Positions 32,255-34,030 of a DNA stretch of 64,000 nt are shown here, in pieces. This DNA comes from an uncultured Alphaproteobacteria bacterium (GTDB lineage: Bacteria; Pseudomonadota; Alphaproteobacteria; RF32; CAG-239). Within the stretch, counting starts at the first letter, position 1, and the number at the start of each line of letters is the position of its first letter. The position numbers and the translations under genes were made by a program. The stretch covers positions 5,725 through 69,724 of the forward strand of contig CALXZI010000001.1 in the NCBI GenBank assembly GCA_944393205.1, read 5' to 3'. The notes beneath the pieces were generated by a model. The model was not told where the DNA came from, did no database searches, and was given only the letters and a program-made list of their open reading frames with translations.

Positions 32255-32358
32255 TTTATAATTACTCCTTATATATTTTTACATTATAAAGAATATTGAC
32301 TGTAAAAGCAATATCTGATAGATTGTGTGTATATAAAAACAATAACGGAGTTTAGGCG

Positions 32359-32856
32359 ATGGACAAAGAGAAAGCGATAGCAAAGGCGGAGGCGTTTAAG
32401 GATGATTGGGAGATAGACCCGAAGAGAAGAAAAGGCCTGCACAAACCGACGGGGTTTGAGATATATATGGGATCAATATGGCGAGATGAAAACGGCATGC
32501 ATTATGACGCGGTATTGGGATATAAAAAGGGAAATTACCCTGCCCGACAGGGGACGATAGAAGAGATGAACGAGTTGCAACGTCAATTCGGCATATTGTA
32601 TGAAGCCGGATATATGCCCGGTATGACTAAAGAAGAAAGAGAAGAAGAAAGCCGTAGGATACATGAAGCTGCGGAAAAATCCCGCAAAGAGTTTCAAGCG
32701 CGAGTAGCGGCAGAAGAAGAATGGCAACGCACGCATCCGGAAGAATTTCAAAAACAGATAGAAGAAAACCTAAAAGCCGCCCGTAAGCGCAAAGCACAAT
32801 GGTACATAGACCACGATTTGCCCGTGCCAGATAAGTTCAAAGACCTTGGCCGTTAA
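32359..32856 (+). CDS. tandem paralog copy 1 (165 aa), unknown family
   Basis: MDKEKAIAKAEAFKDDWEIDPK... Its C-terminal ~105 aa are identical at nucleotide level to copy 2. Confidence 0.6.
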   Translation: MDKEKAIAKAEAFKDDWEIDPKRRKGLHKPTGFEIYMGSIWRDENGMHYDAVLGYKKGNYPARQGTIEEMNELQRQFGILYEAGYMPGMTKEEREEESRRIHEAAEKSRKEFQARVAAEEEWQRTHPEEFQKQIEENLKAARKRKAQWYIDHDLPVPDKFKDLGR

Positions 32857-32875
32857 ACTGCGGGGAGTATGCGAC

Positions 32876-33376
32876 ATGGATGAAAAAGAAGCTCAAAGAG
32901 AGGCGGAAGCGTTTAAAGATGATTGGGAGATTGATCCGAAAGAGCAGCACGGATTGCATAAACCGACAGGATTTGAGATAGACATGGGATCTGTATGGTA
33001 TGATGACGAAGATAAAATGCATTACGATGCGGTAGTATGGTACAATAAAGGAAAATATCCCGATCGTCAGGGGACGATAGAAGAGATGAACGAGTTGCAA
33101 CGTCAATTCGGCATATTGTATGAAGCCGGATATATGCCCGGTATGACTAAAGAAGAAAGAGAAGAAGAAAGCCGTAGGATACATGAAGCTGCGGAAAAAT
33201 CCCGCAAAGAGTTTCAAGCGCGAGTAGCGGCAGAAGAAGAATGGCAACGCACGCATCCGGAAGAATTTCAAAAACAGATAGAAGAAAACCTAAAAGCCGC
33301 CCGTAAGCGCAAAGCACAATGGTACATAGACCACGATTTGCCCGTGCCAGATAAGTTCAAAGACCTTGGCCGTTAA
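32876..33376 (+). CDS. tandem paralog copy 2 (166 aa)
   Basis: Start MDEKEAQRE with a GGGGAG RBS, 520-bp unit. Confidence 0.6.
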   Translation: MDEKEAQREAEAFKDDWEIDPKEQHGLHKPTGFEIDMGSVWYDDEDKMHYDAVVWYNKGKYPDRQGTIEEMNELQRQFGILYEAGYMPGMTKEEREEESRRIHEAAEKSRKEFQARVAAEEEWQRTHPEEFQKQIEENLKAARKRKAQWYIDHDLPVPDKFKDLGR

Positions 33377-33395
33377 ACTGCGGGGAGTATGCGAC

Positions 33396-33896
33396 ATGGA
33401 TGAAAAAGAAGCTCAAAGAGAGGCGGAAGCGTTTAAAGATGATTGGGAGATTGATCCGAAAGAGCAGCACGGATTGCATAAACCGACAGGATTTGAGATA
33501 GACATGGGATCTGTATGGTATGATGACGAAGATAAAATGCATTACGATGCGGTAGTATGGTACAATAAAGGAAAATATCCCGATCGTCAGGGGACGATAG
33601 AAGAGATGAACGAGTTGCAACGTCAGTTTGGCATATTGTATGAAGCCGGATATATGCCCGGTATGACAGATGAAGAAGTAGAAGAAGAAAGCCGTAGGAT
33701 ACATGAAGATGCGGAAAAATCGCGTAAAGAGTTTCAAGCGCGCGTAGCAGCGGAAAAAGAATGGCAACGCACACATCCGGAAGAATTTCAAAAACAGATA
33801 GAAGAAAACCTAAAAGCCGCCCGCAAGCGCAAAGCACAATGGTACATAGACCACGATTTACCCGTGCCGGACAAGTTCAAAGACCTTGGTCGTTAA
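33396..33896 (+). CDS. tandem paralog copy 3 (166 aa)
   Basis: Near-identical to copy 2 with a few substitutions (e.g. TDEEVEEE for TKEEREEE, DAEK for AAEK, AAEKEW for AAEEEW). Confidence 0.6.
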   Translation: MDEKEAQREAEAFKDDWEIDPKEQHGLHKPTGFEIDMGSVWYDDEDKMHYDAVVWYNKGKYPDRQGTIEEMNELQRQFGILYEAGYMPGMTDEEVEEESRRIHEDAEKSRKEFQARVAAEKEWQRTHPEEFQKQIEENLKAARKRKAQWYIDHDLPVPDKFKDLGR

Positions 33897-33916
33897 ACTG
33901 CGGGGAGTATGCGACA

Positions 33917-34030
33917 TGGACAAAGAGAAAGCGCTTCATTATCACTTGATGGGCGTTATTCTTTTTATGGCTTATTTCTGTGTGCCAAATTTTCCTTTTT
34001 TCGCATCATATGATAAAGAACAAAAATAGC
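33917..34030 (+). pseudogene. truncated fourth copy of the tandem paralog (copy-1-type 5' end, 37 codons)
   Basis: ATGGACAAAGAGAAAGCG is identical to the copy-1 start and preceded by the same 19-bp inter-unit spacer, then diverges to MDKEKALHYHLMGV...* . Confidence 0.5.

Follow-up and report, generated by a model that had tools for sequence, protein, structure and literature searches.

The chromosome of an uncultured alphaproteobacterium carries a three-gene operon of a lineage-restricted orphan gene, here named S166, and the third copy in this tandem array arose through one unequal homologous crossover. The array lies within a 64-kb stretch of contig CALXZI010000001.1, hereafter the window, whose positions supply all coordinates given below; L-numbers (L001 and so on) designate related loci or contigs from other assemblies. 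S166 stands for the family of small array genes and L501 for the family of their divergently transcribed 501-amino-acid neighbour. Taken as a whole, the explanation advanced here (an operon, a crossover origin for its third copy, a conserved module, and S166 as a partner of L501) is the best available, and our confidence in it lies a little past the even mark.

The three genes stand head to tail with a period of 520 nucleotides (a repeat finder gave start-to-start distances of 517-520 nucleotides), and the identical 19-nucleotide spacer ACTGCGGGGAGTATGCGAC, with its Shine-Dalgarno sequence, follows every stop codon of the array. A single conserved promoter drives the array, each copy has its own Shine-Dalgarno sequence, and the operon ends at a hairpin at 34034-34065. 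TRF, with a longest period of 500 nucleotides, did not report the array because the 520-nucleotide period exceeds that limit. The parts of the operon are as follows.

32296-32324, plus strand: sigma-70-type promoter from a promoter scan, TTGACT, 17 nucleotides (GTAAAAGCAATATCTGA), TAGATT
32347-32350, plus strand: Shine-Dalgarno GGAG preceding copy 1
32359-32856, plus strand: S166 copy 1, 165 amino acids, type-A N-terminal domain and type-X C-terminal half
32857-32875, plus strand: inter-gene spacer of 19 nucleotides, holding Shine-Dalgarno GGGGAG
32876-33376, plus strand: S166 copy 2, 166 amino acids, a chimera of a type-B N-terminal domain (as copy 3) and a type-X C-terminal half (as copy 1)
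33068-33105, plus strand: 38-nucleotide block common to all three copies, the inferred crossover site behind copy 2
33396-33896, plus strand: S166 copy 3, 166 amino acids, type-B N-terminal domain and type-Y C-terminal half

Base-by-base comparison resolves the array into the identity blocks [A-X][B-X][B-Y]. Copies 1 and 2 share 72% identity over their first ~193 nucleotides and are then identical for 328 consecutive nucleotides (~103 codons plus the spacer), the last difference falling at 33067; copies 2 and 3 show no difference over the first 230 nucleotides and then 20 substitutions, the first at 33106, that lead to 4 amino-acid changes. Copy 2 is thus equal to copy 3 up to 33105 and to copy 1 from 33068, with a single breakpoint in the block common to all copies. 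The initial annotation of this DNA, made from its letters, had placed three head-to-tail genes for proteins of 165-166 amino acids here, and both the list of open reading frames (ORFs) and the 520-nucleotide period bear it out; its description of copy 1, diverged in the N-terminal part and identical to copy 2 at the nucleotide level thereafter, is equally accurate. Copies 2 and 3 are near-identical as it said, although the few substitutions that it counted number 20. It had also seen signs of gene conversion, of which the mosaic itself stands and the mechanism does not: one unequal crossover within the 38-nucleotide block of a two-copy array [A-X][B-Y] would give [A-X][B-X][B-Y] exactly, so that repeated gene conversion is unnecessary.

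Other metagenome assemblies hold both the derived state and the two-copy state that a crossover predicts. All three genes recur in L027 (sample BRZ_RM) with 0 differences from the window, and the contigs of two ONAT22-1 samples (L028 and L029) carry a two-copy allele, exact copy 1 followed by exact copy 3, again with 0 differences, which is the predicted parental or reciprocal state. The same locus in another strain (L032, sample BRZ_KT) has copy 1 and a variant B-type copy. Copy number at this locus is therefore polymorphic, three in the window and L027 and two in L028, L029 and L032, and the exact copy 1 protein occurs on 7 contigs of other assemblies. A contig from a further sample, L022, matches window 24749-33122 at 99.94% identity; it stops 17 nucleotides beyond the B-X junction and has the chimeric sequence there, not that of copy 3.

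That the array or its copy number is an artefact of assembly, a repeat-induced mis-join, is a concern that the initial annotation had itself raised and that these other assemblies make barely credible. Short-read contigs do often end within the array (L004, L022 and L030, with an N-gap in L009), and the true copy number may be higher or lower in any one assembly. Nevertheless, a different sample reproduces the three-copy sequence base for base, the B-X junction, with 40 nucleotides between diagnostic sites, is present in a third sample, and tandem S166 arrays occur in several unrelated genomes. Since the three-copy, two-copy and B-X junction forms all recur, the array is not an artefact; read support for it and for its chimeric gene comes from at least three samples. 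One point does count against the crossover history, namely that the two-copy contigs could in principle be collapsed three-copy arrays, but these contigs pass through the array unbroken, with none of the branching at which other assemblies stop. As a practical matter, short-read assemblies break or collapse at the array, and the copy numbers found in metagenome-assembled genomes (MAGs) are not to be trusted.

Beyond copy 3, the same spacer opens a truncated fourth unit, which the initial annotation had correctly recognised. The 18 nucleotides that follow the spacer there (ATGGACAAAGAGAAAGCG) are the first six codons of copy 1, and the sequence beyond is unrelated.

33897-33933, plus strand: truncated fourth unit, 19-nucleotide spacer and first 18 nucleotides of a type-A gene
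33934-34033, no strand: non-coding flank, a deletion remainder by comparison with strain L032
34034-34065, no strand: G+C-rich hairpin with a 14-bp stem, between the array and the convergent RND pump gene, conserved in L004
34085-37261, minus strand: RND pump gene, convergent with the array

This unit is an old truncated remnant of a further type-A copy. In the relative L004 it has decayed and its ATG is gone, and in strain L032 the remnant is longer (~40 nucleotides, 13 type-A codons) and is followed by a segment of 881 nucleotides that includes, on the opposite strand, an intact type IVb pilin-like gene. The window shares with that segment only a patch of 18-20 nucleotides (TTATTTCTGTGTGCCAAA), and window 33934-34033 is a deletion scar where a pilin-like gene once stood. 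An ORF of 37 codons at 33916-34029 was considered as a gene and rejected, because in the syntenic L004 (89% identical) a 16-nucleotide deletion takes its ATG and an indel breaks the frame. The hairpin is likely a bidirectional terminator between the array and the RND efflux operon.

The initial annotation had called the family unrecognised, and extensive searches have not changed this. An exhaustive profile search with hidden Markov models over 1.84 billion representatives found S166 in only 10 of them at E<=0.001, all of the same lineage, and a word-indexed search of 5.8 billion proteins returned 29 S166 clusters, 0 of them named. S166 has no match in Pfam, NCBIfam, PADLOC, PHROGs or the sequences of the PDB by profile search, nor any by fold, and tblastn found no homolog in phage or plasmid records. 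Pfam applied to every member of the S166 and L501 alignments gave only inconsistent sub-threshold matches, PADLOC gave 0 families at E<=1 for either protein, hhalign showed no relationship between the two, an Rfam scan of the whole window had no match, and the literature on this lineage yielded nothing useful. The matching genomes, each a MAG with two to three loci, bear the label uncultured Alphaproteobacteria or Azospirillaceae, and the carriers are probably gut-dwelling, as the sample names suggest. Two further loci, L010 and L011 (CAVBCV010000015.1 and CAVBCV010000033.1), hold S166 and the pilin-like family in a bin labelled Lachnospiraceae, where the other carriers are Alphaproteobacteria; the label is probably a binning or naming error.

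S166 genes are real coding genes under purifying selection, with pooled ratios of nonsynonymous to synonymous polymorphism (pN/pS) of 0.23-0.49 in all regions, below 1 even in the variable region. The proteins are acidic (pI 4.7-7.0) and have neither a signal peptide nor a membrane segment. The AlphaFold2 model (pLDDT 87) consists of a short helix, a four-stranded sheet, a helix and then a long, charged helical hairpin. Alignment of the family reveals a mosaic, with several types of N-terminal domain (N-domain) over residues 22-66 and either short or long C-terminal tails. Arrays, which are likewise found in L003, L006 and L009, usually keep two N-domain types, and the C-terminal halves are near-identical within an array. 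In order along each array, the types are these.

Window: A, B, B
L003: A, A, C
L006: C, A
L009: A, C

Amplification has taken place independently with different unit lengths, 520 nucleotides in the window, 727 nucleotides with its own promoter in L036, and ~884 nucleotides in L020; such recurrence indicates selection on dosage or diversity rather than chance. The genes are also rich in GAA and AAG codons, and long antisense ORFs run over them (window 32837-33271 and 33357-33791, and L001:9395-10444, all on the minus strand; 144 and up to 349 amino acids). These ORFs are artefacts that could mislead gene callers. Matches of the L501 profile to the antisense strand of S166 genes in L001 and L002 were likewise set aside as artefacts of charged, low-complexity translation.

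The divergent neighbour that the initial annotation had described as a hypothetical protein of 501 amino acids is confirmed, and it further proves to be a conserved partner.

30749-32254, minus strand: L501, a 501-amino-acid orphan protein, divergent from the array

L501 begins with an alpha/beta domain, continues with a highly conserved core (~residues 180-365) and a Glu/Lys-rich linker, and closes with a long C-terminal helix and a positively charged tail that ends in arginine. It too has no match in Pfam, NCBIfam, PADLOC, PHROG or the PDB, and a profile search found relatives in the same lineage only. Homologs of 450-500 amino acids lie divergent beside S166 at ~11 loci (L006, L009, L014, L016, L017, L020, L021, L023, L036, L040 and L041). 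In the distant branch L036, S166 matches the family profile only weakly (E 3e-7) and the 479-amino-acid partner scores E=1e-84 against the L501 profile. All of these loci also hold S166, and L501 was never seen without it. S166, for its part, stands alone in L010, L011 and L001, and beside a decayed L501 in L005 (an 80-amino-acid remnant) and L008 (a 303-amino-acid truncation). Five relatives thus offer a natural decay series at the rpmH-rnpA-yidC locus, with the module intact in two (L023 and L040) and decayed in three (L008, L005 and L001, L501 being gone from the last); the decayed forms include truncated L501, the 80-amino-acid remnant, and frameshifted or partial S166.

At least seven chromosomal sites, each between housekeeping genes, harbour the module; a single genome has two to three of them, and the flanks vary by site: trpS and the RND pump in the window, parC-recO-kdsA and pagP, rsmI and surA, rpmH-rnpA-yidC, lptFG and rlmH, or tatC. 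No integrase or other mobile-element gene was seen at these flanks. S166 and its promoter are the constant core of the module, with L501 as the usual divergent partner and a type IVb pilin-like gene often adjacent, and the whole evolves by birth and death through independent tandem amplification, N-domain shuffling, homogenisation of the C-terminal half and pseudogenisation. The recent duplication, recombination and decay that the initial annotation read from the array agree with this picture, given the single-breakpoint mosaic, the polymorphism between two and three copies, the truncated terminal copy, and the pseudogenised modules at a second locus in relatives.

Two further marks set the module apart, its promoter and the last residue of its proteins. 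Across loci the promoter consensus is TTGACT, a 17-nucleotide spacer nnAAAAGCAAnATCTGA and TAnnTT. The window contains the motif TTGACTnnAAAAGCAAnATCTGA a single time, where 0.01 occurrences would be expected, and each related locus likewise has exactly one, in every case ahead of its first S166 gene; the promoter is recognisable even in the distant L036 branch, before each of its two copies. The promoter spacer is nearly invariant across loci with proteins only ~40% identical, and this conservation does not extend to the part of the intergenic region that faces L501. The spacer bases AAAAGCAAnATCTGA, at window 32296-32324 and at the equivalent sites in 15 loci, are more conserved than the genes they drive. 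Such conservation suggests a dedicated regulator or sigma factor. The motif was not found in viral contigs, and 3 matches in JGI metagenomes, none with S166 or L501 genes, were dismissed as chance matches. At the other end of the genes, the final residue is arginine in every full-length S166 and nearly every L501, the L036 pair included, and the preceding residues vary. Its codon may be CGT, CGC, CGG, CGA or AGA, so that it is the protein sequence that is conserved. Over the last 30 residues the net charge is positive (+1 to +7), with no multi-arginine motif, and the residue preceding the final arginine is often acidic.

What might such a module do? S166 is possibly a cytoplasmic, abundantly made binding partner of L501, antidote-, inhibitor- or chaperone-like, a reading that we put forward tentatively and short of even confidence. 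It is favoured because L501 always occurs with S166, S166 outlives L501, the promoter is strong, and the amplifications are independent. S166 would bind L501, a protein with an enzyme-like conserved core, and selection would favour S166 in excess over L501; the proposed selection for excess would also account for the strong conserved promoter and the recurrent amplification of S166. S166 would most likely contact the C-terminal helix of L501 through its own helical hairpin (residues ~92-152), an interface proposed because similarity in L501 is mirrored more closely by the C-terminal half of S166 than by its N-domain (between L017 and L021, L501 is 92% identical, the S166 C-terminal half 86% and the N-domain 62%).

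Several observations weigh against this reading. Gene adjacency is the sole link between S166 and L501. Between L006 and L009, L501 is 80% identical but the S166 C-terminal half is 61% identical, and short and long S166 C-tail variants adjoin very similar L501 proteins, which weakens the argument from co-evolution. The AlphaFold2 model of L501 is too poor (pLDDT 54) to reveal an active site, and divergent transcription together with a 500-amino-acid 'toxin' is atypical of toxin-antitoxin pairs. Nor does a simple antidote model explain arrays with two N-domain types or a terminal arginine common to both proteins; the conserved promoter and this arginine are two marks that lack an established explanation.

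A neighbouring idea, and one offered by the initial annotation, is that the array is the immunity cassette of a polymorphic toxin system, with L501, or a gene not seen here, as the toxin. The tandem arrangement of small paralogs, acidic and cytoplasmic, would suit it, as would the several N-domain types kept in one array and the persistence of S166 while L501 decays, in the manner of orphan immunity genes. However, S166 lies divergent from L501, not downstream of it, and the array has no upstream toxin gene with a trafficking domain. The core of L501 is conserved, and the protein has no known trafficking, Rhs, CdiA, MafB, LXG or PAAR domain and no variable C-terminal toxin domain. No toxin-C-terminus fragments lie between the copies, which are all of one family and almost identical, not diverse; neither the Pfam immunity families (Imm, SUKH and similar) nor PADLOC gave a match, nor did any toxin or defence profile; and N-domain types in S166 vary independently of the L501 beside them. 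We regard this proposal as very unlikely and do not retain it.

The terminal arginine acquires another meaning if the bacterium is host-associated and secretes or translocates S166 and L501 as effector-like proteins, an alternative that the initial annotation had also named for such arrays. On a positive tail, the arginine would then mark both proteins for export, for example by a VirB/D4-type type IV secretion system (T4SS) or by the neighbouring type IVb pilus machinery, and amplification and shuffling would diversify interactions with host or competitor targets. Its protein-level conservation in both families, L036 included, and the net charge of the last 30 residues speak for this reading, together with the mosaic N-domain types and the tandem duplication of S166. 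A lead comes from the Arg-rich C-terminal signal of Agrobacterium VirB/D4 substrates, as stated in a passage of PMC8525350 that cites Vergunst 2005. Genes for TrbI/VirB10-like and VirB11-like proteins lie ~4 kb from the module at the rpmH locus of four relatives, and L020 and L013 adjoin a type IVb pilus operon. On the other side, S166 and L501 lack a signal peptide and any domain that is eukaryote-like or known from effectors; their tails are without the multi-arginine pattern of Agrobacterium, and the often acidic residue before the final arginine fits it poorly; the 64-kb window holds no secretion genes, no VirD4 was seen, though no search aimed at it was made, and nearness to the secretion genes of the rpmH locus may be incidental; and pN/pS stays below 1 even where S166 varies. 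An effector role seems unlikely to us, but it is the main rival of the partner reading.

The secretion genes of the rpmH locus deserve mention in their own right. In L001, positions 648-4892 of the plus strand encode a giant TrbI/VirB10-like protein of ~1414 amino acids with nine beta-flower (PF21785) repeats, followed at 4910-5881 by a gene for a VirB11-like ATPase, and the same genes are found in L005, L008 and L023. The pair suggests an unusual type IV secretion apparatus.

A third unannotated family accompanies many of the modules. Its members are type IVb pilin-like, with the N-terminus GRSMVEMLGVLAIIGVLS, a Cys-rich C-terminus, and sub-threshold matches to N_methyl and PilS. The family is multi-copy, with an N-terminus GRSMVEMLGVLAIIGVLSVGAIAGYSKAM and a variable Cys-rich C-terminus, some members having leaders of 60-70 amino acids and none an above-threshold Pfam match. 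Examples of the genes, with the number of copies where there are several, are these.

L032:1603-2232, minus strand: pilin-like gene
L010:9054-9695: pilin-like gene
L014:7634-8407: pilin-like gene
L020:5766-6404: pilin-like gene
L021:5598-6404: pilin-like gene
L041:5479-6297: pilin-like gene
L011: 4 pilin-like copies
L017: 3 pilin-like copies

Their placement raises the prospect that S166 and L501 are cytoplasmic accessory or regulatory factors for the expression, choice or assembly of pilin-like paralogs, the window locus having lost its pilin gene. The pilin-like gene lies directly downstream of L501, 80-100 nucleotides away and co-directional, in L014, L017, L020, L021, L041 and L042; in L010 and L011 it is transcribed divergently from S166, and in L015 and L032 it follows the array in convergent orientation, L032 keeping it exactly at the deletion scar of the window, at the same locus. 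Since no pilin gene is present elsewhere in the 64-kb window, the association does not reflect background density. Yet a pilin gene is missing from the 5-10 kb around the modules of the window, L016, L040 and L036, the known accessory factors of pilins reside in the membrane or periplasm, which S166 and L501 do not, and no DNA-binding or known regulatory domain was detected in either. A service to pilins is on balance quite improbable.

A broader formulation draws the partner reading, the promoter and the arginine together. S166 and L501, often with a pilin-like gene, may constitute an unrecognised two- or three-protein system of a clade of uncultured Alphaproteobacteria, with the promoter and the terminal arginine as its hallmarks. 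The arginine could be a new signal for export, processing or degradation machinery, and the proteins either new secretion substrates or a toxin-antidote pair in which antidote dosage is tuned by tandem amplification. This is speculative, and rather doubtful in its full extent.

Whatever its function, the array offers a clean natural example of gene amplification by one unequal crossover, with the parental two-copy and the derived three-copy states both present in wild populations. Its dynamics are textbook; the protein families and the module are in no library searched, and the module joins two undescribed protein families in a lineage known from metagenomes only. The dependence of L501 on S166, a promoter conserved beyond the coding level and a selected C-terminal arginine could serve as entry points to the biology of these uncultured bacteria.

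Elsewhere in the window, a three-gene cluster at 25025-27967 (plus strand) encodes a VWA-domain protein, a PP2C phosphatase and a Ser/Thr protein kinase, and adjoins an NMO-like oxidoreductase (28126-29514). The genome is rich in undescribed proteins, as illustrated by ORFs without a Pfam match at E<=1e-5: 54966-58541 (minus strand, 1191 amino acids), 52052-53947 (plus, 631), 45297-46553 (minus, 418), 19682-20698 (plus, 338) and 23368-24207 (minus, 279). The gene at 41462-42430 (plus strand), on a bacterial chromosome, matches PF06258 (mitochondrial fission ELM1) strongly, at E 8.5e-74.

Comparison with known systems places the module near several of them. Unlike the cassettes of polymorphic toxins (contact-dependent inhibition or CDI, Rhs, MafB, LXG), the array has no upstream toxin gene in the same orientation with a trafficking domain beside it, and it consists of one family with 19-nucleotide spacers where those hold mixed immunity families with toxin fragments. 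It resembles toxin-antitoxin or immunity pairs (type II toxin-antitoxin, colicin-like or restriction-modification-like) in that L501 always comes with S166 and S166 can stand alone or outlive L501, in the small acidic partner apparently present in excess, and in the several paralogous modules per genome. It departs from type II systems in being divergent with separate promoters rather than a co-transcribed bicistronic operon, and from such pairs generally in that L501, at 450-500 amino acids, has no known toxin fold, no antitoxin domain that binds DNA was detected, no profile matches, and the variable domain of S166 does not co-vary with L501. No PADLOC model of known anti-phage defence matched S166 or L501, and neither has homologs in phage or plasmid records.

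With the alphaproteobacterial T4SS effectors (the Bep proteins of Bartonella, the VirB/D4 substrates of Agrobacterium), the families have in common a lineage-specific expansion by duplication, positively charged C-terminal tails with a conserved arginine, and T4SS genes in related genomes. They differ in having no BID, FIC or other effector domain and no adjacent virB/virD4 operon in the window; their tails end in one invariant arginine in place of the Arg-rich motif of Agrobacterium. The variable pilin loci (Neisseria pilE/pilS and the R64 thin-pilus PilS/PilV shufflon) provide another parallel, since the module is tied to multi-copy, variable type IVb pilin-like genes and S166 shows mosaic shuffling between conserved sequence blocks. 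However, S166 has no class III signal peptide and is not a pilin, all of its copies in these arrays are complete, translatable and under purifying selection, and no recombinase or shufflon sites were seen. The array itself is a lineage-specific tandem gene family amplified by unequal crossing-over. With other tandem multigene families subject to unequal crossing-over and concerted evolution it shares the constant head-to-tail period, a chimera with a single breakpoint, copy-number differences between strains, the homogenisation of one part of the gene and a truncated terminal copy; it differs in that S166 is part of no described family and has been amplified independently in several lineages with different unit lengths.

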